Source: Deltaproteobacteria bacterium (GTDB lineage: Bacteria; SAR324; NAC60-12). From it: 56,180 bases of DNA. The notes under the pieces were generated by a model. That model saw nothing but the letters and a program-made list of their open reading frames with translations, was not told the DNA's origin and searched no databases. Below are positions 1 to 48,936 of the stretch, piece by piece. The stretch's first letter is position 1, and each line of letters starts with the position of its first letter. The position numbers were made by a program, and so were the translations under genes. The stretch spans positions 5,160 through 61,339 of the forward strand of contig NYUB01000088.1 in assembly GCA_002683785.1 (NCBI GenBank). Reading direction: 5' to 3'.

Positions 1-2
1 CC

Positions 3-107
3 ACCATCTGCTATGCGTTCATGCAGGCGGTGGGCATGGTCAACGATCACACCACGGACTGCTTCCGATATGCTCAGTTAAAGGATGGAAGAACAACAGA
101 TTCTTGA
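3..107 (+). CDS. tag: DNA-3-methyladenine glycosylase I, C-terminal end only (gene starts before the window)
   Basis: Frame from position 3 reads TICYAFMQAVGMVNDHTTDCFRY...*, the conserved Tag C-terminal motif; not in the ORF track. Confidence 0.9.
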   Translation, partial: TICYAFMQAVGMVNDHTTDCFRYAQLKDGRTTDS

Positions 108-347
108 AATCCTTCAAAGAGGAGGAAGAATTTCATGATGCAGATTGACCGGAAGAGGAATACTCTTTTCCTGTTTCTTTAACAGTTTCGAGTTTGAATC
201 AAAAAACGGCATTAAACTGTGAAACCAAGTTCTATAGAGATGGAAACGACGGTGGATGAGTTCTGCTTTGATTCTGCTCCCTGAAACATATCGTCCATAT
301 CACCTTAACCGACTGATTTTTTGTGGTTGTCATAACTTCCTCTTTGA

Positions 348-1535
348 ATGACTCAGGAACCTTACCTTTATGAAGACTTTGCCCTGCGCCGGGCATTGAG
401 TTCCAACCTGGTCGGATTCTGCAGGCATCTCCGGAATCAAGGATTGGTCTCCGGGATTGGAGAACAGATGGACGCCCTCCGTGCTTTGGAAAGCATTCCG
501 CTCAGAGAGCAGGAACCTTTCCGCATGGCTCTTCGAACCAGTCTGGCCAAGAGCACCCAGGAGCAGGAAATCTTCGATGAGCATTTCCGTAAATTCTGGT
601 ACGTCTGGGAAAGTTCAGGAGAATTTTATCGCCAACCTCCTGGAGAAGAGGAGGAACGCTCCAAAATCCATGTCATCGATGAACGTCCCAAACCGACGTT
701 TCTCTCGATTCATGACTGGATGAATCAGGATTCGGAATCGGAGGAGGTTCAGGATTCTGCGGGTTATAGCCCCTTTGAAGTCGACACCGAACGAGATTTC
801 AGCCAATTCGGTTCAGAGGAACTGAACGAGGTGATTGCTCTGATCAATGAAATCGGGAAAAGGCTTGCGACACGCTTCAGTCGCAGGATGCGTCATTCCA
901 AAAGACATGGGCCGATGGACCTGCGACGGACGATGCGGCTAAGCCTGAGAAGGGGTGGGGAACTGATCGACCTGATGCACCATCGACGGCGCCGTCAACG
1001 GTTGAAGCTGGTGTTGCTTTGTGACGTCAGTAAATCGATGGATCTCTACAGCCGTTTCCTGATCCAGTTCATCTATGCCTTTCAGACCGTCTACCGACGC
1101 ATTGAAACCTTCGTCTTCAGTACCTCCTTGCACCGGATTACCGATCAACTGAAACAACAGTCGATGGACGAGGCGGTCGCACGGATTTCTGAAAGTGTTC
1201 CAGACTGGTCGGGAGGAACCAAGATCGGGGCTTCTCTGAAACAGTTTGTTGAGGAATATTCATTGATAGTTGTGGATCCTGCAACCGTGGTGCTGGTGAT
1301 CAGCGATGGATGGGACACGGGAGAAGTGGAAATGTTATCCGAAAGCATGTCTCATCTGAAACGCAGTGCACGATCATTGATCTGGCTGAATCCTCTCAAG
1401 GGGAGTCCGGATTATGAGCCGACCACCCGAGGGATGCAGGCGGCTCTTCCGCATCTCGACCTTTTTGCCTCGGCTCATAACCTGAATAGCCTCAGAGACT
1501 TGATGGGTGAATTGATGTTGCTTCAGAGAGGTTGA
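348..1535 (+). CDS. CoxE-like VWA domain protein
   Basis: DLRRTMR, LCDVSKSM (MIDAS), WSGGTKIG, ISDGWD and WLNPL motifs. Confidence 0.9.
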   Translation: MTQEPYLYEDFALRRALSSNLVGFCRHLRNQGLVSGIGEQMDALRALESIPLREQEPFRMALRTSLAKSTQEQEIFDEHFRKFWYVWESSGEFYRQPPGEEEERSKIHVIDERPKPTFLSIHDWMNQDSESEEVQDSAGYSPFEVDTERDFSQFGSEELNEVIALINEIGKRLATRFSRRMRHSKRHGPMDLRRTMRLSLRRGGELIDLMHHRRRRQRLKLVLLCDVSKSMDLYSRFLIQFIYAFQTVYRRIETFVFSTSLHRITDQLKQQSMDEAVARISESVPDWSGGTKIGASLKQFVEEYSLIVVDPATVVLVISDGWDTGEVEMLSESMSHLKRSARSLIWLNPLKGSPDYEPTTRGMQAALPHLDLFASAHNLNSLRDLMGELMLLQRG

Positions 1536-20752: not shown

Positions 20753-21595
20753 TTAGGCAGCCAGTGGAGAGGCTTCAGCCTGTTTCAATTTACGATGTCG
20801 GAATTCACCCCAGATGGCAGCTCCAGCGGCGCCTGCATAAATCGAGTCAATGTGAGAACGGATCTGGACCTCCAGCTTCTGATCTGAGGCCTGTTCCAAG
20901 AGAGCCCTGCACAATCCTTCATCCTGAGCCAACCCACCTGTCACCAAAACCGTATTTTCCCTGACTTTGATGGCCTTGAGCAGCTTGATAAGACGTCCTG
21001 CCATCGAAAGATGAATCCCTTTGAGGATGTTCTGGGAACTGATGCCGCGAGAAACCATGTTGATCACATCCGTTTCCGCGAGCACCGCGCAGATGGAGCT
21101 CACCGTCTCTGGATCATCGGCCTGCAGGGATAGCGATCCCACTTCATCCTGAGCGACCCCTAGGTAACGAGCAATGTTTTCAAGAAACTGTCCGGTTCCG
21201 GAGGCACACTGGCTGGTCATTTTGTAGGAAAGTACTTTACCGTGTTCATCGATGCTGATGGCCCGGCCATGAAGAGCCCCGATGTCCACCAGTGAACGTG
21301 CTGAAGGTTCCAGAAACGATGCCCCCCGTGCATGGGTTGTCATCGAATAAAAATGACCTGTTCTGAAATCAACATTCTCCCCCTCACCTGTTGTAGCAAC
21401 ATACTCGACTTCTTCAGGATCGATATCGGTTTTTTTCAACAACCAACGGTAATCTTCTTCTGCCAGTTGGTTTGGATCGCGCTTTCGAATACGACTGGTG
21501 TGCTTGGCAAGCCATTCGATGGCCCCCTCTTCAATGCGGAAAAGGACGCTTTTTATGGAATTGGTGCCGATGTCGATCCCTGCAGTAATGGTCAT
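20753..21595 (-). CDS. bcrD: Benzoyl-CoA reductase class I, subunit D (ATPase/activator)
   Basis: [48 protein letters not shown] and [11 protein letters not shown] motifs. Confidence 0.93.
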
Positions 21596-22914
21596 GCGTG
21601 TTCCTCCATTGCTCGATGTGCAAAGGTGGCGGCTCCCAGTGCCCCGGTATAGATCGATCCCGGGTCGATGTTGACCGTCACTTCTCCATAATTTTCTTGA
21701 ATCAATCCCTTTAGTGCCATCACGGCAGCCTCGTTGTTGGCGACTCCTCCTGTGAAAGTGAACTGATCGCTGATTCCTCCTGAACGTGAAAGCAGGGACA
21801 TAGCACGCAGGATGATCGCACGGTGTAATCCTGCAAGAATGTCCTCGCGTTCTTCTCCAAGTGCCAAACGGTCGCGTAGTTCAGCGCCTGCAAACACAGT
21901 ACACGTGGAGTTGATCCTAACTTTCCTGGTGGCCTTCATGGCCATTGGCCCGAGTTCGTGAAGTCCGACATTCATTTCGTCGGCGATGTAGCCCAGGTAG
22001 CGCCCGCAACCTGCAGCACAGCGGTCGTTCATTTGAAAACTGCTGACGATTCCGGATGGATCGACCTGGATTGCCTTGGTGTCCTGTCCTCCAATGTCGA
22101 GCACGGTACGGGTTTCTGGATACATGATGTGCGCACCCAGGCCATGGCAGAGAATTTCTGAACGGATATGGTCTTTCGAAAAAGGAAGTCGGGCACGTCC
22201 ATAACCGGTTCCAACCACATAACTCTCTTCCAGTTCGATGTTGTATGCCTGTTCGACCTTTTCAAGAATGATGTTTTTTTGAGACTCAAGTTCTGGTGTG
22301 ACTTTGAGCATGCGTTGCAAGGCTTGAAGCATCATCATACGGGCATCACCCTCACCAAAATGATTTTCCACTTCAATGATCGAACGGTCATAGACGTTCA
22401 GCAACAAGTCGAAGGAAAGCCCGAGTTCCCTGGCGCTGGCCTCACCAATGGCTAGGTACCGGGAACCGGCAATGTCTCTGAAAAAATCTGATTTCCGGGA
22501 TGCACCGGGCGCAAACAATTCGGGTGCCTCCTCTCGGAGTTGATGGAAGATTTTACGTAGGGCATCTGCGATGATGGTCTTTTCACGGCTGGCAAATCGG
22601 TTTCCGGAAGCATTCGTATGGCAAACCGATTCCAGGTCTGCTAATTGTTCCATGAATTGTTCTAGGCGAAATGTGCGTTCCAGTCCTGAAAGAAATTCTT
22701 CAAGGTTTTCAAACAGTGTTGAGACCGGTTCCAACGACTGCCGAACCAGGTTGATCCTTGTATTGACCAGTGCCTCTTCTTTGGCAACAGACGCTGCAAT
22801 ATCATAGTTGGATCGTGAATTGGTGATGCCTCTTCCCAGAATCTGCTGCTCTTCATCCAGAATCAGTGCTTTAGTGGTGGTAGATCCTAAATCGATCCCG
22901 ACGAAGCACTTCAT
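21592..22914 (-). CDS. bcrA: Benzoyl-CoA reductase class I, subunit A
   Basis: [51 protein letters not shown] and [11 protein letters not shown] motifs. Confidence 0.95.
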
Positions 22915-24215
22915 GCTGCCACTCCTTCGGAAAAACCACCTCCACGTTTTTGGTTGATCATCTGAAAATAACTCTCCAGACGGTTTTTGACGTTGGCTCC
23001 TGAAAAATACCTTGGATCAACCAAGTCGGTTTCAATAAAAGCTCCGGGTTTGCCTGTGCGTTTTTCAACTTCACGCAGGAGCAGTAGTTGGCCTGCAGAG
23101 AAACTGTTGCAGCTTTTGATCGAATTGATCAACAGTCCGTCTGCCTGATAATCCTCAACATAATTGGAAAGCATCTCGGCACGACTTGGCAGGTTGAGGT
23201 TGGTGTAGCAACCGAGGCAGTAGTCTGCCATTGATTCCAGGGGGTGATCTGGATCATGCCGGAATCCAAAATCATAGACTCCTCCGACTTTGGTGTAGGT
23301 ACTCGCCACAACCACGGCTCCTTCTTCGTAGAACATCTTCCAGAACTCGCGGAAGCTGGTCCAGTTTGGCGGTCCCTCCACCACCAGACGGTATTTTTCA
23401 TCCTTCATCTCCCCATCCGGAGTGATCGGTCCCTCTCCCTTTTCAAGGCGTTCTGCAATTTCTGATCGAAGGGTACGGTAGTATTCACTGGCATCCTCTG
23501 TTCCCCGGAAAGCAGTAAAAATGGGACCGATGTAATAAACACCACCGAAATAGGCATCGATCGGCGAAGGCCGGTTTTTGGCAGTTTGAAGAACCCAGAC
23601 CAGGTCTTCTTCAGACTTGGCGGATTCACGCATGTATTCACGGAGACGGTCGATATCGAATTTGACTCCGCTGACCCGTTCCAGAGTCGGGATGACTTCC
23701 TCCCGAAGTTGTTTGACGACATAATCACGCATGTTTTCGTTGATCGTTCCGTCTCCCTGATAGGGAATGTGAAGCATTGATGTTTCGCAGTCATACTGCT
23801 CCCGAACCAGTTCGAACCACTTCATGAAGGTGAAACAACCTGTGTAGGAAAGCAGCAGCAGATCCGGCTTCGGCAGGGTTTCTCCCGTCGGACCGATATT
23901 CCCCTGAGCCATCATTCCAAGGTCCGCCTTGACGTAGGTACAGACGTCTTCAGAATGTCCGGATCGTTCGGCTTCCATGATCATCCGTCCGGTTTTCTTG
24001 CGCATGCCGTTCTGCAGGGCATTGATTTCGGGAAGGTTGCGTGCCATGTCGAAGCACATCAGCAGTTCATTGATGTTGCCGGGAACAAAGGTCGATACGA
24101 CTTTTCTCCCTTGCTGAGGTGCCTGGGCGAGTTCATGGAAATTGGCTGAAATCATTTGCTTCTGCTTTTCCATGGAATCTTCCTTGATTGCATCGGGTGG
24201 AGTCATTTGGCTCAT
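22911..24215 (-). CDS. bcrB: Benzoyl-CoA reductase class I, subunit B
   Basis: [38 protein letters not shown] and [11 protein letters not shown] motifs. Confidence 0.95.
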
Positions 24216-24321
24216 TGTTGCTCCTTTCTATTGATGAAGTTGAAACTGAACCGGTTGCAGATCCCGGATCGCAAACAGGCTTCAGTCAAATCCCAGAGGT
24301 TTGGTTGCATCATGTTCATGG

Positions 24322-25503
24322 TCAGGCACTCCAGAGCTTGATGGAATCTGCAAAAGTTCCAGCCTGTTCACGAATCGGCTGCATCTGTCCTGAATTTTCA
24401 GCATATTTGAATGCAGTGTAAGGTATGTTTTCTTCTGCCAGACAGTTCTGCAGCATCGGCCGGTCGAGCAAAGCCGGGTCACAAAAACTGGGTGCGGCAA
24501 AGATCACTCCTTCCGCCTGGTTTTTCCGAACGGCTTCCACCAGATATTGTCCCTTGTCAGACGTTACCGGCACATACTTGGCAGAAGTCTCATTGGAGTG
24601 GTTGAGAAAACCGTCCGCCAGGTTTTCCAGAGGATCTCCAGAAGTTGGCACATCCTCGAGAAGCCAGCGTGTGACAAGCATGAAATCATCATCCACGATG
24701 TAGCATCCGGCCATTTCGATGGATCGGATCAAATTCAAAGGAGGCTGTTCACAGAAAACTCCACTGACGACAACCCGGCAGTTATCCCGCATCACCTGTT
24801 CCTCCTTCTCGACGGCTGAAATGTAATCCCGGATCAGTTGGGTATGTTCCTCCACAGGCAACACCATTCCGGCCCGGATGACGAGGTAGACATCCGGGCT
24901 GGGGGTTTTCCAGGGGCGTTTTGCACGATAGTGATAAAGGTCCTGAATCGCTCTTCGGTTTTCATTGTAGACTTCGATCGATTTCCATAAATCATCTGGA
25001 CTGATCTGCTTTCCTGAAAGCTTTTCAAGATCACTCAGCAACTGCTTCAGTTCATTGACGTAGTAACTTCCTCCGATGTCCCTGGCGTAGTTTTGGGGGA
25101 CATCGAAATAGCGCACATACTTGTCTTCGAACATCAGTTGCCACATGCCTGATAGGTTGCGGATCACATCACAGATGCTGGGAAACAGCATGCCGTCCAG
25201 AACGTCGAGCCTTCCTGTCAAACCGAGTTCGATGGTGGATCTTGGAATGCGGCAAATGTAACTCTGGTAGTAGGCATCCCCCTGGATGACTTCCAACTGG
25301 TCTCCTCCGCCGAGGATCCCCACCGGCAGCATTCCTGCTGCATGGATGATTTCTCTCGGGACGTAAACGGGCATATAGCCGATCACCTTTCGTCCCTTTT
25401 CTGCAGCTTTCCATTCTCGTACCTCTGAAAATTCAAGATCATCGAATAGCCGACGGCAGCGATCGACGATGGCCGCGCTACCACCATTTTGAAAGTTGTT
25501 CAT
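24322..25503 (-). CDS. bcrC: Benzoyl-CoA reductase class I, subunit C
   Basis: GDAYYQSYICRIPRSTIELG, FPSICDVIRNLSG, PSFCDPALL and QAGTFADSIKLW motifs. Confidence 0.95.
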   Translation of the reverse strand: MNNFQNGGSAAIVDRCRRLFDDLEFSEVREWKAAEKGRKVIGYMPVYVPREIIHAAGMLPVGILGGGDQLEVIQGDAYYQSYICRIPRSTIELGLTGRLDVLDGMLFPSICDVIRNLSGMWQLMFEDKYVRYFDVPQNYARDIGGSYYVNELKQLLSDLEKLSGKQISPDDLWKSIEVYNENRRAIQDLYHYRAKRPWKTPSPDVYLVIRAGMVLPVEEHTQLIRDYISAVEKEEQVMRDNCRVVVSGVFCEQPPLNLIRSIEMAGCYIVDDDFMLVTRWLLEDVPTSGDPLENLADGFLNHSNETSAKYVPVTSDKGQYLVEAVRKNQAEGVIFAAPSFCDPALLDRPMLQNCLAEENIPYTAFKYAENSGQMQPIREQAGTFADSIKLWSA

Positions 25504-25504
25504 T

Positions 25505-26272
25505 TCAACAGTCCTCCCATTTTGGGGGACGCTTTTCGAGAAAGGATTGCAACCCTTCCACGGCGTCTCCGGTTTTCATCAATTGCTCAAGATACAGTTC
25601 CTCAACGGCCGATAGTTTACGTTTCAGATTTCCAATCACCCCTTTGCGGGCAGCTAGAACTGCATGGCGCAGAGAACTCGCACTTTTTGATGCCAGATGC
25701 TTCTGGAAGTAGACCCGTGCCGCTTTTTCAGGATCCTCATCGACTTGGTTCAGAAGTCCGATCCGCAAGGCTTCATCAGCCCCCACACTGCGTCCTGAAA
25801 AAAGCAGGTCTTCTGCATTCGACTGACCGATACGCCATGGAAGCAGACAAGAAGCTGCCGGAGCGATCACTCCCAGCATGATTTCCGGCTGTCCCATCTG
25901 GGCATCTGGTGCGGCGTACAACTGAGATCCTGCACAGGCCAGTTCGAGCCCTCCGCCAAGACACTGGCCTCGGATGACGACCAGCACCGGGTAGGGAAGA
26001 CCAAGCATCTTCAGCAGCAGTTGGTGGAAATCATGCAGCATGGCCTCACACTGTTCCGGAAGATGTTCCTCAACGCTGGCCCCAAAACTGAAATGCGGAC
26101 CTTCTGCATCCAGCAGGAGGCCACGAAGTTTTGGATTCCCGGAATGTTTTTCGAGTTCTTCTGAAATAGCCCTGATCATTTCGGAATCGAGGATGTTTGC
26201 CTTGGGACGTGCCAGTCTTAGGCGGAGCAATGTCCCATTCTCCTCGATCCAGGAGCCTACAGGATCCGTCAT
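25505..26272 (-). CDS. dch: Cyclohexa-1,5-dienecarbonyl-CoA hydratase
   Basis: Crotonase fold (LARPKANILD, HFSFGASVEEH, GQCLGGGLE, GQPEI); ATGA overlap with oah; cluster context. Confidence 0.9.
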   Translation of the reverse strand: MTDPVGSWIEENGTLLRLRLARPKANILDSEMIRAISEELEKHSGNPKLRGLLLDAEGPHFSFGASVEEHLPEQCEAMLHDFHQLLLKMLGLPYPVLVVIRGQCLGGGLELACAGSQLYAAPDAQMGQPEIMLGVIAPAASCLLPWRIGQSNAEDLLFSGRSVGADEALRIGLLNQVDEDPEKAARVYFQKHLASKSASSLRHAVLAARKGVIGNLKRKLSAVEELYLEQLMKTGDAVEGLQSFLEKRPPKWEDC

Positions 26273-27387
26273 GATGCTTTTCGATCCAGCCCAGGCATCA
26301 GTGCATCGGTGAATTCCTCCGACCAACGCTGTCCCTGGGCAAGTGCACGGCGCAGGGCGACAAAGTCCACTTCCCGTTGGGTTTTTGTTCCTTCATTGAA
26401 AGCCCTGAACCCTGCTCTTGCTTCGGTCATCATGTTGTTCGCAAGCCACGCGCGTGCATCTTCCTTGTTGCGATTCCAGGCTTCGAGTTTAGGCTTTCTC
26501 AGTTCCTCGACAGTTTTGGTCATGCAGTCCGGAAACGTATAGAGCAGTTTGGTACAGAGAGCCTCGACGGCTTCATCCAATAAAGACAGATCCGTCGTTC
26601 CACTTTTCAGCAAAGTCTTGGCCTCGGTCAAGGCCTCTCCAGTTTTGTTCTCACCGTAAGCAAAACTGCCCCATGGATCGAACATCTGCTGTGTCTCCAC
26701 CAGAGGATTTGGCAGCCACTCGCCTTCAACCCTCAGGGCAGGAACGATTCCACTGATCATTCCATTGAGATAAACCTTGTGTGCTGACCAGACTTCGCAG
26801 AGCGTTCCGGATTCCATGGCCTTTTCTCCTGTCATCATCACCGGCAGAAAGTCCGTCGAACCGCCGATGGGAGCTGACCCATGTTTGGGACCTGCCTGGC
26901 CGAATCGGGCCAGATCCTGTGCGATCGAAAAATCACAGGCCATCCCGATTTCCTGGCCCCCTCCGACACGCATTCCATTGACCCTGCATACGACTGGTTT
27001 GTCGCAGGACAGGATGGATGAAACCATATCGTTGAAAAGCCTCATGTATTGTCGATACTCCTGTGGCCTGCCTGCATAATACTCGGCATATTCCTTGGTG
27101 TTTCCTCCGGTGCAAAAGGCTCTGTCCCCACTGCCGGTGAAAACTACGGCAACACTGTCACGTTCATTGGAAGCCTTGCGGAAGGCGAGGATCGCACCCT
27201 TGACCATCTCGGTGGTGTAGGAATTGTACTGTGCGGGATTATCCAGCGTGATCCAGATGTTGAAGAGACCTTTGACGGCCTGGCCATCCGAACCAAGCAC
27301 AGGTTTTTTTTCATACAGAATTCCTGGAAAATCCTGTCCGGAATCAAAATTATGATCTTTGTAGTTGAAATCCGACTCGGTTGTCAT
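26269..27387 (-). CDS. oah: 6-oxocyclohex-1-ene-1-carbonyl-CoA hydrolase (ring opening)
   Basis: LDNPAQYNSYTT, FCTGGNTKEYAEYY, GQAGPKHGSAP and NNMMTEARAGFRAF motifs. Confidence 0.93.
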   Translation of the reverse strand: MTTESDFNYKDHNFDSGQDFPGILYEKKPVLGSDGQAVKGLFNIWITLDNPAQYNSYTTEMVKGAILAFRKASNERDSVAVVFTGSGDRAFCTGGNTKEYAEYYAGRPQEYRQYMRLFNDMVSSILSCDKPVVCRVNGMRVGGGQEIGMACDFSIAQDLARFGQAGPKHGSAPIGGSTDFLPVMMTGEKAMESGTLCEVWSAHKVYLNGMISGIVPALRVEGEWLPNPLVETQQMFDPWGSFAYGENKTGEALTEAKTLLKSGTTDLSLLDEAVEALCTKLLYTFPDCMTKTVEELRKPKLEAWNRNKEDARAWLANNMMTEARAGFRAFNEGTKTQREVDFVALRRALAQGQRWSEEFTDALMPGLDRKAS

Positions 27388-27405
27388 TGTTAGTCCTTTG
27401 TGTGT

Positions 27406-28473
27406 TCATGGAACCAGAACAGCACGCTTCGTGAGTTCGTGCCGTTGGGCTGCATTGAAAATATTCTGGATTGAATCCAGAGGGTACTGCTCAACGAAAG
27501 GAGCCACTGCAACGCTTCCGTTCATCACGAGTTCTAGAGCTGCGGGATATAGTTCAGGGGCACATCCCCAGTTTCCCAGGGCACGTGCGTCAAAGGCCAT
27601 CAGGTTTGACAATCGAAGTTCAAACCGATCCATGGTGAATCCAACCACACAAAGTGTCCCCCCATGGGTAAGAAGACCGAATGCGGTTTTTTGACCTGCA
27701 ACGCTTCCGGAACATTCAAAGAGGTACCATTCCTGTGCAGGAAGTCCTTGATTTTCAGCAAATTCGAGAATCCTTTTTTTAAATTCCCGTCCTTCCACCT
27801 CACGTGCGTCAAGGGCCAAGGCCGCACCGTTTTGCCGAACGCTTTCAAGCCTGCTCGCATCAATGTCGATCGCCACCACTGAAGCCCCTAGTGCTGCACA
27901 GATCTGCACGGCATAGCCTCCAATGCCTCCTGCTCCAATAACGACCGCTAAATCACCCTTTCCAATTCCTGAACGAACTGCAGCTTGATAAGGTGTAGTG
28001 ACCGCGTCTGCGATCACCGATACATCGGCTAGAGTCAATCCAGCAGCTTCAAGTTTTGTCTCATCCACTTCGCATAGTCCATATTCTGGGACCCTAACGT
28101 GGGAAGCGAATCCACCCTGAATGTCATTGCCTGGCATTTTCTGGCTACGGCAGATGGTTCCTCGCCCCCTGAGGCAGAGACCGCATTTCCCACAGGGAAT
28201 GACAGCCGGTATGATCACTTTTTTCCCCACCCAGCTTTCTGCACCTTCACCTGCTTCAAGAACCAGTCCGCTGATCTCATGTCCTAAAATTAAAGGAAGA
28301 GGGTGGTTCGGACGGACTCCATCAAAATAATAGCCAAGGTCCGTATGACAGACTCCGCATCCGGACACCTCGACTAAAAGCTCTGCCGACACCGGAGAAG
28401 GTAGATCAAACTCCTTTCTCACCAGGGGTTTCCCTGCTTCCTCCATTTGCCATGCGTAGCCCTTCTGCATCAT
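27406..28473 (-). CDS. had: 6-hydroxycyclohex-1-ene-1-carbonyl-CoA dehydrogenase
   Basis: Zn-ADH motifs CHTD, GHE and CxxCxxC; [21 protein letters not shown] and [17 protein letters not shown]. Confidence 0.92.
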
Positions 28474-36761: not shown

Positions 36762-38342
36762 TCACCATTCCATGGCAGGAGAGTCTTTGTCCAGCAGTTC
36801 GAGCATTGTTCCGGATTGGATGAGGTCTGCCACAACCTCGAGCGGATCAGTCAATGGGAGATCCCGATCCAGATAGGGGATTTTTTCACGAACCAGTTGC
36901 AGGACCTCCAAGGTCTTGGAACTGAGCTGGTCACTTCCACGAATATCCGCCGCCTGACAGGCACAGATCAGTTCGAAAGCTGTGATGAGACGTGTATTGC
37001 GCAATATGTCCCGTGCCCTTCTTGCCCCAATCAGACCCATTGAAACATGATCCTGAAAATCACCGGTGGAGGTCAACGTCTGAATCGAAACGGGCGTGCA
37101 GAGCGAACGGTTTTCGGCAGTCAGGGAGGTGGCCGCAAACTGTCCTCCCATCAGCCCCAGTCGCAGCCCTGGATTCTCCCTGCAGAGAAAGGGCGGAAGC
37201 CCTACGTTGTGGTCAGGGTCGAGAAAACGGTCGGTCCGCCGGTCCGAGAGGTTGCAGAGGTTCGTCAAGACGATGGAAAGCTGGTCCATGGCATTGGCGA
37301 TGTACTGCCCGTGAAAGTTGGCATTATGAAACGCCTCCCCGTGTTCCACCAAAATCAGCGGATTGTCATTGGTCGAATTGAGTTCGGTCTTTACTGTCTG
37401 CTCGATGAAGAGGGTGGTATCGAGCACCGGACCCAGAATCTGTGGGGTGGCACGGATCGAATAAGGGTCTTCGATCTGTTGTTCCAGCCCTTCCGGTTCT
37501 TCGCTCCGCAGTTCTCGCAGCCAGCGTTCGACCTCCTCATCCTGGACCACCATTTTGCTGTCAGAAAGGATGTCGAAGATGGATGCTGCCACCCGGATTT
37601 GTCCCGGATGCGGTTTATTTTCATGTGCGGCCGGATGGAAGGGCATGATCTTGCCCTTCAGCACCTCAATGCTGAGGCTGGAAATAAGCAGGTAGTTCTT
37701 GATCAGGGTTTTTGCATCTGAGGTCAGACAGGCTGCGATGCCGGTCATCGTCGAGGTGCCGTTGATCAACGCCAGGCCTTCCTTGTAGCCCAGTACCATC
37801 GGTTTGATTCCGGCCCGTTCCAGGGCTTCGCTGCCGGAGACGATTTCCCCCTCGAAGGAGGCACGCCAATACCCGCATCCAACCATTGCCACACAGGCCA
37901 GCGGTCCCAGGTCTCCGCTTGCTCCCAGGGATCCCTGTTCGGGAATGCAGGGCAGGATGCCGGCGTTGTAAAGATCGACGTATTTTTTATAGTTCTCGAA
38001 GCTGATCGCGGAAGCACCGCGGCCCAGGGAATTGAGACGGGCGAGCATTGTCGCCCGTACATATTCATCATCCAGGAGACGGCCGACGTTGGAGGCTACG
38101 CCGCGAAGGATGTTGTTCTGCAAAGCCTCGGCGTAGGCGGGCGGAACCAGCCAGTTGACAAAACCTCCGACTCCTGTGGTGACGCCATAGATCACCCGGC
38201 CTGAATCGACAAACTGATCCAGAAGCTTCCTGGAAGCCCGAACGCGTTCCTCGATTTCAGGGGATATTTCCACCCAGAACTCCGGGTGCCGTGCCATTTC
38301 GGTGATTTGTTCGACGCTAAGGGTGCTTCCATCGAGAATCAT
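36762..38342 (-). CDS. MIO-dependent aromatic amino acid aminomutase/ammonia-lyase, AdmH/EncP-like, copy 2 (526 aa)
   Basis: IYGVTTGVGGFVN, LQNNI...NVG, GSLG-ASG-DLGPL (MIO), KEGLALINGT, NDNPL and GDFQDHVS motifs; AAGGAGG RBS before ATG 38342. Confidence 0.9.
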   Translation of the reverse strand: MILDGSTLSVEQITEMARHPEFWVEISPEIEERVRASRKLLDQFVDSGRVIYGVTTGVGGFVNWLVPPAYAEALQNNILRGVASNVGRLLDDEYVRATMLARLNSLGRGASAISFENYKKYVDLYNAGILPCIPEQGSLGASGDLGPLACVAMVGCGYWRASFEGEIVSGSEALERAGIKPMVLGYKEGLALINGTSTMTGIAACLTSDAKTLIKNYLLISSLSIEVLKGKIMPFHPAAHENKPHPGQIRVAASIFDILSDSKMVVQDEEVERWLRELRSEEPEGLEQQIEDPYSIRATPQILGPVLDTTLFIEQTVKTELNSTNDNPLILVEHGEAFHNANFHGQYIANAMDQLSIVLTNLCNLSDRRTDRFLDPDHNVGLPPFLCRENPGLRLGLMGGQFAATSLTAENRSLCTPVSIQTLTSTGDFQDHVSMGLIGARRARDILRNTRLITAFELICACQAADIRGSDQLSSKTLEVLQLVREKIPYLDRDLPLTDPLEVVADLIQSGTMLELLDKDSPAMEW

Positions 38343-38383
38343 TTTTCCCTCCTTGTTAAATTTTAATTGGCCGTTGGTCAAAG

Positions 38384-38678
38384 TCAGGAATCCTTGATCC
38401 TTCTTATCAGCTTTGCCTTGGATTCATATTTGGGAAGCGTTCCCTGATCAATCAGTTCCACTTCTGTCCGAAAAATCAGTTTTTTCGCAGTAGTTCCAGT
38501 TCCTCAAAATATGGCACATCATCACGCTTCAGCCCGGTACCATTGAATTGTGCCTGGGAAAAAGATGAATGACCCAGATATGATCGATTCCATTCTAAAA
38601 AGCCTCCTGCGGAACTTTTAAGAAGGGTTCCTCCGGCAGGGTTTCCATCGATTTGTTCCAGCATCCTGTATCGCTCAT
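38384..38678 (-). pseudogene. Internally deleted, frameshifted phenylacetate-CoA-ligase (PaaK) family gene
   Basis: GAGGAGG RBS then MSDTGCWNKSMETLPEE* (PaaK-like N-terminus); second frame HSSFSQAQFNGTGLKRDDVPYFEELE; then C-terminus LIFRTEVELIDQGTLPKYESKAKLIRR*; the central catalytic part is absent. Confidence 0.7.
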
Positions 38679-38687
38679 TTTTCCTCC

Positions 38688-40070
38688 TCAACAGGTGTAA
38701 AGGTGAGGATTACAGTCCTGAACGAAGGGCTGAAGGGTCTCCAGTGTTTCATCAAAGGTTGTCAGTACCTGTTCAACCTCGGCTTCTGCCATCGGTGTCG
38801 AGAGGATCAGGAGTCCACGGCTGCTGGAAAATATTCCGCGGTTTATCAGTTCAAGATGCAGCAGTTTTGGCAGTTGTCCACACTGCTCCTGAGCACGAAC
38901 GACGTCCCCGGCATTCATGATTTCATCCTCCGTCCAGTGAAGTCCGATGACCGAACCAATGCCTGTGGCCTGGGCCCGGAAACCCTTGCGGCTGAATGCC
39001 TCAGAGATGCCGTCGCGTATCTTTTTTCCCATGCCGTTGAGACGTTCAATTTCGTCAGGGTCATAGAGTTCCAGGGTTGTCAGCCCTGCGGCCATGGTCA
39101 GGTGGTTGCCGTTGAAGGTTCCTGAATGGGAGATGGATTCGGGCTGATCTGGATCGAAAAGCTTCATGATCTCTTGACGTCCACCAAAAGCCCCGACCGC
39201 GAGACCTCCTCCAATGATCTTACCGAAAGCCGTCAGGTCTGGACGGAGTCCTTCCATTTCCTGCATTCCACCGTGATGCATGCGGAAACTGATCACCTCG
39301 TCAAAAATCAGCAACACGCCGTAATGTTGCGTCAGTTCGCGAAGCCCCTTGAGATAACCCCTTGCGGGTGTCACTACCCCTCCGGCACCAAGCATGGGTT
39401 CCACGATCAAGGCTGCAGTTTGTTCTTGATTTCGTTTCAGTATTTCTTCCACGGCATCGAGGGAGTTAAAAGGCACCACATCGACTTCGGAAAGGACGGA
39501 CCGGGGCACCCCACGGCTGTTCAGACGGGGTTGATGCATTCGCTCCGGATCAGCAGAGGCATGAACGCTGACTTCCACATAATCATGGGTCCCGTGGTAA
39601 CCCCCGTCGATCTTGATCACACGCTCCCGGCCGCTGAATGCCCGTGCTGCACGGAGGGCGAACATCGTGGCTTCCGTCCCTGAATTGCAATAACGCAGTT
39701 GATCCAACGTGGACACACGGCTGCACAGATGTTCTGCATGGAGGATCTGCATTTCAGATGGGGCACCGAAGACGGTACCGCGTTCCAGTTCCTGCCGGGT
39801 GCTCTCCATCACACGTGGATGGGCATGGCCATGGACCAGCGAGGAATAGTTGTTGAGCAGGTCCAGATAGTGATTGCCATCCAGATCGGTAAGCCTGCAG
39901 CCCCTGCCGCGCTGCATGTATAGCGGATAGGGGGAAAAGTGGGTCGCCGAACGAGTGTCCCCGCCGGGCAGACGGTTTCCGGCCCGCTGATGTTGTACCA
40001 GGGATTGAGCGCTTTTTTCCCGGTAGCGCTGAAGGATGGATTGGAAAACCGGATGAGTTTCTTCTTTCAT
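38688..40070 (-). CDS. Class III PLP aminotransferase (GSA-mutase-like fold, beta-amino-acid transaminase-like)
   Basis: LPGGDTRS, NSGTEA, GGYHG, FDEVISFR, FGKIIGGG (PLP Lys) and HSGTFNGN motifs; lacks the HemL GVNSPVRA signature. Confidence 0.85.
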   Translation of the reverse strand: MKEETHPVFQSILQRYREKSAQSLVQHQRAGNRLPGGDTRSATHFSPYPLYMQRGRGCRLTDLDGNHYLDLLNNYSSLVHGHAHPRVMESTRQELERGTVFGAPSEMQILHAEHLCSRVSTLDQLRYCNSGTEATMFALRAARAFSGRERVIKIDGGYHGTHDYVEVSVHASADPERMHQPRLNSRGVPRSVLSEVDVVPFNSLDAVEEILKRNQEQTAALIVEPMLGAGGVVTPARGYLKGLRELTQHYGVLLIFDEVISFRMHHGGMQEMEGLRPDLTAFGKIIGGGLAVGAFGGRQEIMKLFDPDQPESISHSGTFNGNHLTMAAGLTTLELYDPDEIERLNGMGKKIRDGISEAFSRKGFRAQATGIGSVIGLHWTEDEIMNAGDVVRAQEQCGQLPKLLHLELINRGIFSSSRGLLILSTPMAEAEVEQVLTTFDETLETLQPFVQDCNPHLYTC

Positions 40071-40155: not shown

Positions 40156-41736
40156 TCAGGATTTAAATACATCAAGCTCTGAGGGAATGGCTTCGAGAAT
40201 GCTTCCCTCACGCAACAGTCTCGCCGCGGTTTCGATAGGCAACGTCAGCGATTCATCATGGTCAAGATAGGGTACCTCCTCACGGACCCGCTGATAGACC
40301 TTTGCAGTCACGGAACCCAGATCCTGCGGATCCCGGCAGTCGGCGGCCTGACAGCCGCAGAGCAGTTCATACCCCAAAATGTAATACGCATTTCCAAGAA
40401 TTTCCCGGGCCCGGAGGGCGGCCACCAGGCCGAAGGATACATGATCCTGGAAATCTCCCGTTGATGGCAGCGTCTGAATCGATACAGGAACGCAGAGTGA
40501 ACGGTTTTCCGCCGTCAGGGAGGTGGCCGCATACTGTCCGCCCATCATACCGTGCCTCAATCCCGGATTTTCACGGCAGAGAAAAGGCGGCAGCCCATGA
40601 TTGTGACCAGGATCGAGGAAGCGGTCGGTACGCCGGTCTGAGAGGTTGCTCATGGTCGTGAGAACGATGGAAAGCTGATCCATGGCGTTGGCAATATACT
40701 GTCCATGGAAGTTGGCATTGTGATAGGCTTCCCCCCGTTCTACGACAATCAGAGGGTTGTCATTCGTCGAGTTGAGTTCGGTTTCTACCGTCCCTCGAAC
40801 ACTGCTCAAGGTATCCACCACCGGCCCCAGAATCTGGGGTGTTGCTCTGATGGTATAAGGATCCTCTATCTGTTGATCCATTCCCTGGGGCTGCTCACTC
40901 TTGAGTTGCTGAAGCCAACGTTCCACCTCCTCATCCTGGACCACCATTTTGCTGTCAGAAAGGATGTCGAAGATGGCTGCGGCCACCCGGATTTGTCCCG
41001 GATGAGGCTTGTTTTCATGTGCCGCAGGGTGAAAGGGCATGATCTTGCCTTTGAGCGTTTCAATGCTCAGGGCGGAAACCAGCAAATAACTGTTGACCAG
41101 CTTTTGGGCTTCTTCCGTGATGCATGCTGCCACCCCGGTCATGGCCGAAGTCCCGTTGATCAGCGCTAAACCCTCCTTGTAATTCAGCCGCATGGGTTCA
41201 AGTCCTGCTTTTTCCAGTGCTTTTCCTCCTTCAATGATCTCTCCCCCGCAGCGTGCCAGCCAGTGGCCGGTTCCAACCAGGGCAATATAAGCCAAAGGCC
41301 CAAGATCTCCGCTGGCACCCAGAGAACCCTTCTCAGGAATGCAGGGGACAATACCCGCGTTGTATAGCTCGACATACTTGCGATAATTTTCGAAGGAAAT
41401 GCCGGAAACCCCGCGGCCCAGTGAATTCAACCGGGCCAGCATCGCAGCACGGACATAGGTGTCATCAAGGTAGGGGCCCACATTGGAAGTAACCCCGCGC
41501 AGGATGTTGTTCTGAAGTTGTTCAGCAAGGTGAGGTGGAACAAGCCAGTTGACAAAACCGCCCACTCCGGTGGTGACTCCGTAGATAATTCTTCCTGATT
41601 CCACAAAACGGTCCAGAAGTTCGCGTGATTCACGAACCCGTTTCTCGATCTCCGTGGAGATTTCAATCCGAATCTTTGGATTTCCTGAAATCTCTGAAAT
41701 GCCTCTGACGCTGAGGGTCGCTCCGTCCAGTATCAT
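40156..41736 (-). CDS. MIO-dependent aromatic amino acid aminomutase/ammonia-lyase, AdmH/EncP-like, copy 1 (526 aa)
   Basis: Same motifs as copy 2, including the ASG MIO triad; GGAGG RBS before ATG 41736. Confidence 0.9.
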   Translation of the reverse strand: MILDGATLSVRGISEISGNPKIRIEISTEIEKRVRESRELLDRFVESGRIIYGVTTGVGGFVNWLVPPHLAEQLQNNILRGVTSNVGPYLDDTYVRAAMLARLNSLGRGVSGISFENYRKYVELYNAGIVPCIPEKGSLGASGDLGPLAYIALVGTGHWLARCGGEIIEGGKALEKAGLEPMRLNYKEGLALINGTSAMTGVAACITEEAQKLVNSYLLVSALSIETLKGKIMPFHPAAHENKPHPGQIRVAAAIFDILSDSKMVVQDEEVERWLQQLKSEQPQGMDQQIEDPYTIRATPQILGPVVDTLSSVRGTVETELNSTNDNPLIVVERGEAYHNANFHGQYIANAMDQLSIVLTTMSNLSDRRTDRFLDPGHNHGLPPFLCRENPGLRHGMMGGQYAATSLTAENRSLCVPVSIQTLPSTGDFQDHVSFGLVAALRAREILGNAYYILGYELLCGCQAADCRDPQDLGSVTAKVYQRVREEVPYLDHDESLTLPIETAARLLREGSILEAIPSELDVFKS

Positions 41737-41833
41737 GAATTCTTCCTCCATCCGGGGGTATTTGAAAAACCTTTCATTCGATGGTATCAGAGATTTAGAG
41801 ATGTTATCTTGCAAAGATTCCAGTAAAATTTTA

Positions 41834-47082: not shown

Positions 47083-48936
47083 TCAATTCTCAGCATCTAC
47101 GACGATGACTCCGGGAGGGATTGAGAAAGCATAAAGGCTTTCGACGATCCCTGCCCTGTGGTTGAGAACCGCCAGTTGGTTAATGTACCCCTTGTCCGTT
47201 GTTTCGTTACGGTCAATGCGTGGTGGCTCCTGCAGCAGAGAAAAACGTTCGAAGCGTGCGCTGCTTCCCTGGTGCTTGGAATTGTGTTTCTGAAAAACTT
47301 TGTGAAAAAAACCGACGACTTCAGGACATTGCAAAAAATCTGGATCATTCGGGTGTGCTTCCGAAACCTGAGGGAATTCCCCTCGTAGCCCAGGCAGGTT
47401 GGGAAAGACCATGGCCGTCAGGTAGTCGCGGTCCGGAGCGGCTACGACCACTTCCAGCAGGTAAGGCTGGCCGAGAGCGTTGATGCTGGACCGCAGACCG
47501 CTGTTATGAACCCAGGTCCCGCTGGCAAGTTTGAAATTCTCTGAAGTACGCCCGTCGAAAACAAGCCCGGCTTCAGGCTGATCCGGGTCCAAAAACCTAC
47601 CTCCGTCCTGGGTGAGGTAAAATCCCTCTTCGTCAAATGCCGCTGCGGTTGCCTCGGGCTGGTTGAAATAACCCGGTGTGATATTGGGGCCCTTCACCCG
47701 CAGTTCCGTCTTGCCTGAAGGATCTGGGGTCAGTTTAACTTCTACCCCTGGTATCGGCAATCCAATGACCCGGGCTTCATCGACCTTCCAATAAACCAAG
47801 GTTGCATCCGGCGATGTTTCCGTCGTTCCCCAACCGCTGAAAAAAGGTAATGGGTTTCCCAGAACTTCCTTACTCATTTGCTGCATGCCCTTGTAGGTTG
47901 ACTGGTCCAGTGCCGCTGCTGCGGTAAAAATAAATTTCAAGTTTTTGAAAAAAGCTTTTTTCAGCTGCTCATCGACTTTCATCTTCGCGTAAAGTGCTGT
48001 GTAGCTTCGGGGGACCCCAAAATAAATGGATGGAGAAATATCCCTGATATTTTCAATGGTTTTGTTCAAGCCGATTGGTGTCGGATTACCGTGGTCAATG
48101 TAAAAAGTTCCACCATGCTTGAGCATCATGTTGAAGACAAAATTTCCGCCAAAGGTGTGGTTCCAGGGGAGCCAGTCAATGATCACCTCGTTACGGTCCA
48201 TAAAGGGCCACATCTGGTGAATGCCTACCTGGTTTGTAACCATCATCCCATGGGTCACAATGACCCCCTTGGGGAGGTTGGTGGATCCTGAGGTGAACTG
48301 AATTTTTGCTACCGTATCCGGGGTGACTGCGTCAAATTGGGTCTGAGCCTCCATCGTGAGTTCGGTATCGTCCTCCAGCAGGGATTCGAAATCCATTACA
48401 TTTGAATGCTGTTCACTGTTGGAAAAAGCAAACATTTGCAGCTTGCCCAGTTCCCACTGGTTGAGTTTGTTCATGTGCAGGTCTGCATCGGACATGATCA
48501 ACAGGGGCGAGCCGGTTACATCCAGTATGTGCTTGATGTGTGAACCGGTTTTTGAAATAGCGGAATAGGCATAGCTAATCGGTGTCACTGAAAAACCCAC
48601 CTGCATACAAGCCAGCTTAAACAAAGCCATGTTGATGCAGTTTTCTGAAAGTAGGGCCAAAGGGCGTTCCGGGTCCAGTGCCCGTGCAACTAAGCCGTTG
48701 CTGAGACGGTTCACCTGGTGCCTGGCCTCCCCATAGCTCAATCCCTGCCATTCCCCATCCGGGTTTCTTTGCATCAGGAAAGGCTTCTGTGGAAATTCTT
48801 CTGCATTCCGATGCAGCCACGAGCAGAGGTTATCCGGGCAGGGTGCCAAGGGGACTTTGTTGCGGATGATCCTGCTTCCATCTTCCCGTTTTTCCAGTTC
48901 TACTTCCACGCTGCTCAACTTCATCGTCCCTGTCAT
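47083..48936 (-). CDS. Feruloyl-CoA-synthetase-like AMP-binding acyl-CoA ligase
   Basis: FTSGSTNLPKGV, DWLPWNHTFGGN, GWGTTET, FDGRTSENFKLASGTWV and ETTDKGYINQ motifs. Confidence 0.85.
   Translation of the reverse strand: MTGTMKLSSVEVELEKREDGSRIIRNKVPLAPCPDNLCSWLHRNAEEFPQKPFLMQRNPDGEWQGLSYGEARHQVNRLSNGLVARALDPERPLALLSENCINMALFKLACMQVGFSVTPISYAYSAISKTGSHIKHILDVTGSPLLIMSDADLHMNKLNQWELGKLQMFAFSNSEQHSNVMDFESLLEDDTELTMEAQTQFDAVTPDTVAKIQFTSGSTNLPKGVIVTHGMMVTNQVGIHQMWPFMDRNEVIIDWLPWNHTFGGNFVFNMMLKHGGTFYIDHGNPTPIGLNKTIENIRDISPSIYFGVPRSYTALYAKMKVDEQLKKAFFKNLKFIFTAAAALDQSTYKGMQQMSKEVLGNPLPFFSGWGTTETSPDATLVYWKVDEARVIGLPIPGVEVKLTPDPSGKTELRVKGPNITPGYFNQPEATAAAFDEEGFYLTQDGGRFLDPDQPEAGLVFDGRTSENFKLASGTWVHNSGLRSSINALGQPYLLEVVVAAPDRDYLTAMVFPNLPGLRGEFPQVSEAHPNDPDFLQCPEVVGFFHKVFQKHNSKHQGSSARFERFSLLQEPPRIDRNETTDKGYINQLAVLNHRAGIVESLYAFSIPPGVIVVDAEN

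Follow-up and report, generated by a model that had tools for sequence, protein, structure and literature searches.

PaaK-type CoA ligases combine an AMP-binding core (PF00501) with an AMP-binding_C_2 domain (PF14535); the canonical PaaK enzymes are described by the equivalog TIGR02155, and the family is represented structurally by 4r1l, 2y27, 2y4o and 3lax. According to the NCBIfam family descriptions, PaaK-like ligases are paired with MIO-type lyases in the systems of FlxY (NF053551) with FlxA (NF053541) and of BagE/FevW (NF041217) with BagA (NF041222), which is the kind of pairing implied by the gene relic that we describe here. These models appear among the matches of the PaaK paralogues of the present genome and of the two lyases at the locus. 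Genes of the aerobic benzoyl-CoA type (box) are reported in some SAR324 bins, in passages that mention neither aminomutases nor phenylacetate (PMC4782131). The parts of the literature on aminomutases, beta-phenylalanine, benzoyl-CoA and aminotransferases available to us contain no description of the present cluster or of its relic.

The window, that is, the whole stretch of DNA that was analysed (56,180 nucleotides), carries a group of genes to which we refer as an aminomutase cluster, a tentative label that is reasonable on the profile scores given below. The genes that matter for the argument, and the counterparts of one of them in two relatives (loci L027, in genome G012, and L035), are the following:

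36762..38342, minus strand: MIO-type aromatic lyase/aminomutase, 526 aa, intact, downstream of the relic (PF00221, E 2.7e-161)
38688..40070, minus strand: class-III aminotransferase, 460 aa, intact, upstream of the relic (PF00202, E 5.6e-62)
47083..48936, minus strand: AMP-binding acyl-CoA synthetase, 617 aa, intact, context and no part of the relic (PF00501)
L027 2783-4633 and L035 1404-3233: counterparts of the 617-aa synthetase (identity 66-68%)

The lyase encoded at 36762-38342 finds its best NCBIfam match in TIGR04475, phenylalanine aminomutase (D-beta-Phe forming), at 744 bits; its paralogue scores 737 bits, and both values lie below the cut-off of 800 bits and far above the score for histidine ammonia-lyase. 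The two paralogues (40156-41814 and 36762-38342, minus strand) flank the aminotransferase and are about 73% identical at both the DNA and the protein level; the pair is kept in G012, L035 and L036, and in genome G002 the second copy lies on another contig. Full-length orthologues of the aminotransferase share 64-83% identity with it. The cluster continues with a thiolase and a PhyH-type dioxygenase, and both lyases, the aminotransferase, the thiolase and their neighbours are all full-length.

The 617-aa synthetase scores 647 bits against NCBIfam NF009232, below that model's cut-off of 777. Its counterparts lie directly beside an AsnC-lyase-aminotransferase-lyase core in L027 and L035. In the window, genes for an EamA transporter, an ABC transporter and a dihydrolipoyl-dehydrogenase-like flavoprotein lie between the synthetase and the core. 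Judged by homology and gene order, this predicted CoA-activating enzyme is a conserved and intact companion of the cluster. Some 8 kb from the aminomutase-aminotransferase-thiolase cluster, a further row of genes (20753-28473, minus strand) encodes two BcrAD/BadFG-type ATPases, two HGD-D-type subunits, two enoyl-CoA hydratases and a zinc alcohol dehydrogenase. This set looks like a candidate ATP-dependent benzoyl-CoA reductase with downstream ring-processing enzymes, and the two sets together suggest a putative route from phenylalanine through beta-phenylalanine to benzoyl-CoA.

Between the aminotransferase and lyase genes, both of which are intact, lies a gap of 345 nt on the minus strand (38343-38687). 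Reading its sequence reveals a GAGGAGG ribosome-binding site (RBS), an ATG and three open pieces in three different frames:

38683..38689, minus strand: GAGGAGG, Shine-Dalgarno-like, belonging to the dead ligase gene (read directly from the sequence)
38598..38678, minus strand: N-terminal piece 1, MSDTGCWNKSMETLPEEPFLKVPQEAF, 27 codons in frame B, closed by TAG at 38597-38595 (translation)
38597..38601, minus strand: T5 run at which the frame switches from piece 1 to piece 2, QEAF being followed by LEW (frame comparison)
38598-38479, minus strand: open piece of frame A, LEWNRSYLGHSSFSQAQFNGTGLKRDDVPYFEELELLRKN, 40 codons, closed by TGA at 38478-38476 (translation)
38494..38598, minus strand: N-terminal piece 2, LEWNRSYLGHSSFSQAQFNGTGLKRDDVPYFEELE, within frame A, which stays open to the TGA at 38478-38476
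38488..38494, minus strand: approximate junction of the internal deletion, where the N-terminal profile alignment ends and the C-terminal one starts and the frame changes again
38503-38387, minus strand: open piece of frame C, GTGTTAKKLIFRTEVELIDQGTLPKYESKAKLIRRIKDS, 39 codons, closed by TGA at 38386-38384 (translation)
38384..38488, minus strand: C-terminal piece, AKKLIFRTEVELIDQGTLPKYESKAKLIRRIKDS plus its TGA stop, the end of an AMP-binding_C_2 domain (PF14535 and family profile)

The GAGGAGG motif (38689-38683) overlaps the TGA stop codon of the aminotransferase (38690-38688), and the ATG (38678-38676) follows 4 nt downstream. The first-pass annotation, made from the sequence without database searches, had proposed an internally deleted PaaK-family ligase at 38384-38678, and these coordinates prove to coincide exactly with the span that begins at the ATG and closes with the last stop. 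The RBS and the three protein-like segments separated by frameshifts and stops that it described are likewise all present; the three peptide strings that it quoted can be found in the translations, with the correction that the last piece ends in LIRRIKDS before its stop and not in LIRR. A single uninterrupted frame of about 430-440 codons is absent, being interrupted by TAG at 38597-38595 and by TGA at 38478-38476 and 38386-38384. The lesion in the T5 run looks like the loss of one base in a homopolymer, a deletion deduced from the frame comparison, and the N-terminal profile alignment, with the pieces joined by X, continues straight across the break. From the alignments, the internal junction can be placed approximately, at about 38494-38488.

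The GC content of the relic (0.444) compares with a gene mean of 0.50 and with 0.37-0.52 in the other intergenic gaps of the window, bar one 64-nt gap at 0.16. A TTG-started open reading frame of 71 aa crosses the relic (38476-38691, minus strand) and corresponds to a public predicted protein, P0001, with 98% identity. P0001 comprises 20 member sequences and has no Pfam domain; in all likelihood the prediction is not a real gene and has arisen because the second frame happens to be open.

The homology of the pieces was assessed with library profiles, which have little power on pieces as short as these, and with profiles of our own. In Pfam, the C-terminal piece is the only one of the three with a match, to positions 67-92 of the 96 of PF14535 (E 0.054), and its score of 14.2 bits is below the gathering score of 25 bits; just the last third of this domain is retained in the relic. 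None of the three pieces matched any NCBIfam model at E<=10, the TIGR02155 equivalog included, and the relic is on these comparisons assignable to the wider PaaK-like clade only, not to canonical PaaK. A search of the own genome with PF14535 found two intact PaaK-type paralogues, of 434 and 431 aa, and did not return the relic among its matches at E<=10. The 434-aa paralogue lies barely above the TIGR02155 cut-off (648.9 against 646.3 bits) and the 431-aa paralogue is PaaK-like; to the latter, the closest paralogue in the genome, the C-terminus of the relic matches at 11 of 20 residues (paralogue positions 406-425). Beside the intact 431-aa gene, on another contig (L002, G000:C54), lies a large open frame (2-1150, minus strand) that by eye looked like a molybdopterin-type oxidoreductase subunit.

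We then built the two family profiles of our own, a narrow one from the 120 listed homologues of the 431-aa paralogue with the two paralogues (122 sequences), and a broad one of 440 positions from 91 sequences. The latter comprised 85 of 150 representatives, the other 65 having been dropped for lengths outside 410-470 aa, together with four listed homologues of the 431-aa paralogue and the two own paralogues. Against the broad profile, the three pieces fall in collinear order, at positions 1-19, 34-62 and 404-433 of 440. Among the 2507 six-frame pieces of at least 10 aa in the window, the C-terminal piece ranks first with the broad profile (16.8 bits, E 2.6e-4; runner-up E 7.6) and again with the narrow one (E 0.0018; runner-up E 2.1). 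When the search is extended to the whole genome, with relaxed filters and six-frame pieces of 30 aa or more (69,342 in number), the C-terminal piece still has E 0.0073; each of the 12 domains that score higher belongs to an open frame of at least 317 aa, and it is the only piece shorter than 100 aa to score above 10 bits. None of 5000 shuffles of this piece reached 16.8 bits (maximum 6.5). The K of its ESKAK motif aligns to the terminal conserved lysine of the profile. In pairwise comparisons, the piece matches the extreme C-termini of family proteins, the best being P0175 (17 of 31 residues identical, positions 380-410 of 411), and 3lax_A (residues 78-105 of 109, E 1.1), a C-terminal domain from a phenylacetate-CoA ligase, is the single match at E<=10 among 177,635 distinct PDB sequences.

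The N-terminal pieces are each insignificant when taken singly (E 24-36 across the window): piece 1 aligns to positions 1-19 at 0.0-0.5 bits, and piece 2, collinear with it, to positions 34-62 at 0.2-2.3 bits. Joined with X, they align to positions 1-62 from the initiator Met at 8.0-8.2 bits, a score reached by none of 5000 shuffles (maximum 4.4), with support that is overstated by the choice of frames and join after inspection. In pairwise comparisons, piece 1 matches mostly the N-termini of family proteins. Word-based protein searches were uninformative: that with the 40-aa middle piece returned only the self ORF P0001, that with the C-terminal piece, extended over the TGA as X to satisfy a 40-aa minimum, returned nothing at E<=10 among five candidates, and these searches with two pieces thus found no intact parent gene or close relative of the dead ligase.

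Profile positions 63-403 of 440 are absent, which amounts to about 341 codons or roughly 1 kb. No piece of the gap aligns above noise to this part of the family profile, the AMP-binding core (PF00501), and since 345 nt cannot hold about 341 codons, the adenylation core is absent from the gap. From these comparisons we conclude that a PaaK-type CoA ligase gene, deleted in its middle, has very probably left its first ~62 and last ~35 codons in the gap. The initial suggestion that the segments represent the extreme ends of a PaaK-family protein, most of the gene being lost, is in this respect borne out (positions 1-62 and 404-433 of 440).

The same structure recurs in other assemblies. Four metagenome contigs (L028-L031) align without gaps at 99.85-99.94% identity over 3400-3401 nt. 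Fourteen DNA runs contain all sampled words of 37900-39100, and some of these runs may be the source sample and are to that extent not independent. Two of the fourteen, dated 2019 and 2020, yielded contigs that cross the region with no differences, joints or loose ends, as far as contigs, which can hide rare variants, can tell. The structure of the relic is no mis-assembly, which at the level of contigs answers the question of misassembly raised in the first-pass annotation. In three of the four metagenome contigs, two of the 3-6 single-nucleotide polymorphisms (SNPs) over 3401 nt fall inside the 295-nt relic, at 38603 and 38550, a concentration that hints, if only weakly, at relaxed constraint. 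The locus is also covered by contigs from the RNA libraries of two studies: those of X15 extend over 37900-38566 and 38525-38894, and those of X16 over 38532-39100, with variant letters within the gap at 38580 and 38603; the part of the gap at 38351-38514 lies outside the X16 contigs. This coverage is compatible with read-through transcription and is no proof of it.

We searched for the ligase gene, or for traces of it, in relatives. A DNA search with the 345-nt gap in 41 genomes (the own genome and 40 relatives) returned, outside the own genome, only chance-level matches of 16-45 nt. Of 88 genomes of the phylum, four contain the lyase at E<=1e-140, and the genome of the window is one of them. 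Orthologues of the aminotransferase at 64-69% identity occur in two of the 40 relatives (G002 and G012); a metagenome scan added one contig, L032, with an aminotransferase 83% identical, and a genome scan identified 80 loci, at four of which a lyase adjoins the aminotransferase (L033, which is G012; L034, which is G002; L035 and L036). In all five of these syntenic clusters (L032-L036), the aminotransferase is followed directly by the lyase with no ligase between them. The spacers measure 52, 122, 153, 93 and 93 nt, compared with 345 nt here, so that the present gap is 192-293 nt longer. None of the five spacers aligns to the relic or shows ligase homology. A tblastn search of 81 loci found no PaaK-type gene, and a search with the family profile of 26,598 six-frame pieces from 91 loci around aminotransferase or lyase homologues found none at any of the 91; its only matches were distantly related AMP-binding enzymes and an unexplained piece of 80 aa in L048. 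The latter (1054-1293, plus strand; 16.3 bits, profile core positions 331-362) is an isolated open piece that adjoins a distant aminotransferase homologue on a Desulfarculaceae contig, at a locus without a lyase, and could be a fragment of another adenylating enzyme or part of a frameshifted gene. The idea that the L032 spacer (52 nt) keeps the last codons of the ligase was rejected, since 318 of 2000 shuffles scored at least as high as the real local alignment (score 18).

On this sampling, the relic is specific to the present species-level lineage. The intact gene that the first-pass annotation had proposed to look for at the same position in related genomes did not turn up in any of the five syntenic clusters, whose spacers span just 52-153 nt. 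Of the two observations that it had set against itself, one was made, no ligase occupying the position in five of five syntenic clusters, and the other was not, since the fragments do match the CoA-ligase family.

Several other explanations of the gap were entertained. An ordinary spacer could contain PaaK-like strings by chance, and it is true that two of the three pieces are individually insignificant and that the NCBIfam models see nothing; but the C-terminal piece stands at E 0.0073 genome-wide, the three pieces are collinear on one strand and in the right order, model position 1 falls exactly at an ATG with an RBS, and the gap is 192-293 nt longer than in the five relatives. Chance resemblance is a most improbable account and is close to refuted. 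Less probable still, to the point of being negligible, is an intact ligase gene that a collapsed or chimeric assembly has hidden. The assembly is indeed of a fragmented, metagenome type, with 173 contigs and ambiguous bases elsewhere, but the identical gap-free structure of four separately recorded metagenome contigs and the uninterrupted contigs of the 2019 and 2020 DNA runs speak against an artefact, as do the 14 DNA runs that hold all sampled words, with the reservation already made about the source sample.

Two further readings accept the relic and differ in what they make of it. The first-pass annotation saw in it the missing CoA-activation step of the pathway, so that the loss of an ancestral ligase would show the pathway to be decaying or rewired to another ligase. 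The position of the relic inside the operon, with its own RBS directly after the aminotransferase stop, accords with that idea, as does the precedent of the NCBIfam ligase families named for MIO-lyase clusters (FlxY/FlxA and BagE/FevW/BagA), and with only five relatives compared a complete and traceless loss elsewhere is possible. The reading is nevertheless unlikely, given that neither a ligase nor a detectable remnant is present at the position in any of the five syntenic clusters and that a PaaK-type gene is present at none of the 91 loci. A CoA ligase is not missing from the cluster, because the intact 617-aa synthetase has counterparts beside the core in two relatives; and as this companion is intact and all other genes of the cluster, from the lyases and aminotransferase to the thiolase and neighbours, are full-length, the relic marks neither a missing step nor a decaying pathway. 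The RNA-library contigs over the locus also weigh against decay. The other reading, which we regard as very improbable, is that the remnant has been co-opted, its RBS and 27-codon ORF serving as a translated leader or coupling ORF for the downstream aminomutase-like gene, or the spacer serving as a promoter; were it correct, a dead CoA-ligase gene would have been recycled as an operon-internal regulatory element in a marine SAR324-type lineage. It could draw on the strong GAGGAGG 4 nt ahead of an ATG with 27 open codons, on the RNA contigs over 38532-38894 from two runs of two studies, and on promoter-like sites at 38621-38592 and 38387-38360 on the minus strand (two found in the scan against 0.7 expected). 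Against these stand the 253 nt that separate the end of the 27-codon ORF from the following start codon, a distance too great for direct coupling, and the position of both gap SNPs of three of the four metagenome contigs in the N-terminal part (38603 and 38550). Shuffled versions of the gap fold better than the gap itself (z +1.7), so that there is no sign of structure; no Rfam family reaches its gathering score over 38200-38850, the two matches scoring 16.9 against 38 and 14.2 against 48 bits. The relatives express the same gene pair with spacers of 52-153 nt, and the confinement of the relic to one lineage leaves no conservation on which the proposal could lean.

With its homology, its anatomy, its presence in independent assemblies and its absence from syntenic relatives demonstrated, the locus is a well-supported, lineage-specific PaaK-type pseudogene relic in an intact operon, and a piece of ordinary biology. 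We propose the following history. A gene for a PaaK-type aryl-acid CoA ligase of about 430-440 codons, with its own RBS, would once have lain between the aminotransferase and the second aminomutase-like gene, the former presence of the whole gene at this site being what we infer from its two surviving ends. A one-base frameshift at the T5 run would have broken the first ~62 codons, and one or more deletions, which changed the frame as well, would have removed about 341 codons of the middle, that is, the whole adenylation core. The last ~35 codons with their stop would have survived. The resulting relic of 295 nt (38384-38678) cannot encode a ligase and would now be transcribed spacer DNA within an otherwise intact operon. 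In relatives, the conserved cluster seems never to have a ligase at this site and to travel with the 617-aa synthetase instead.

Whether the whole gene was gained by this lineage or lost by the others can be weighed by parsimony over only five relatives. On balance, and by a narrow margin, we infer that the gene was added in this lineage and afterwards decayed; the alternative, an ancestral gene, needs three or more clean losses in the others.

For annotation, the locus is to be marked as a PaaK-type pseudogene remnant, in place of the meaningless 71-aa ORF P0001. The pathway inference is to be corrected as well: the phenylalanine-aminomutase/aminotransferase/thiolase cluster is not short of a CoA ligase, and since the conserved 617-aa synthetase travels with the cluster, the relic says nothing about pathway loss. 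At most, it records an extra aryl-acid CoA ligase that the present lineage once carried in the operon and then discarded.

Set beside the systems with which we began, the relic resembles the PaaK-type ligases in its two ends, which align to the first 62 and the last 30 profile positions, and differs from them in lacking the adenylation core (63-403) and in a frame that is broken twice; it probably descends from the family, of which it is no functional representative. It resembles the FlxY/FlxA and BagE/FevW/BagA systems in the implied pairing, but none of its three pieces matches the FlxY and BagE/FevW models at E<=10, and the lyases here score best as phenylalanine aminomutase (TIGR04475) and not as tyrosine ammonia-lyase. 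It also resembles ordinary bacterial pseudogene relics, with which it shares the retained ends, the lost core, the T5 frameshift, the intergenic-level GC content and the spurious ORF call. Nothing about it is unusual by that standard; the operon around the present relic is intact and is found in RNA libraries.
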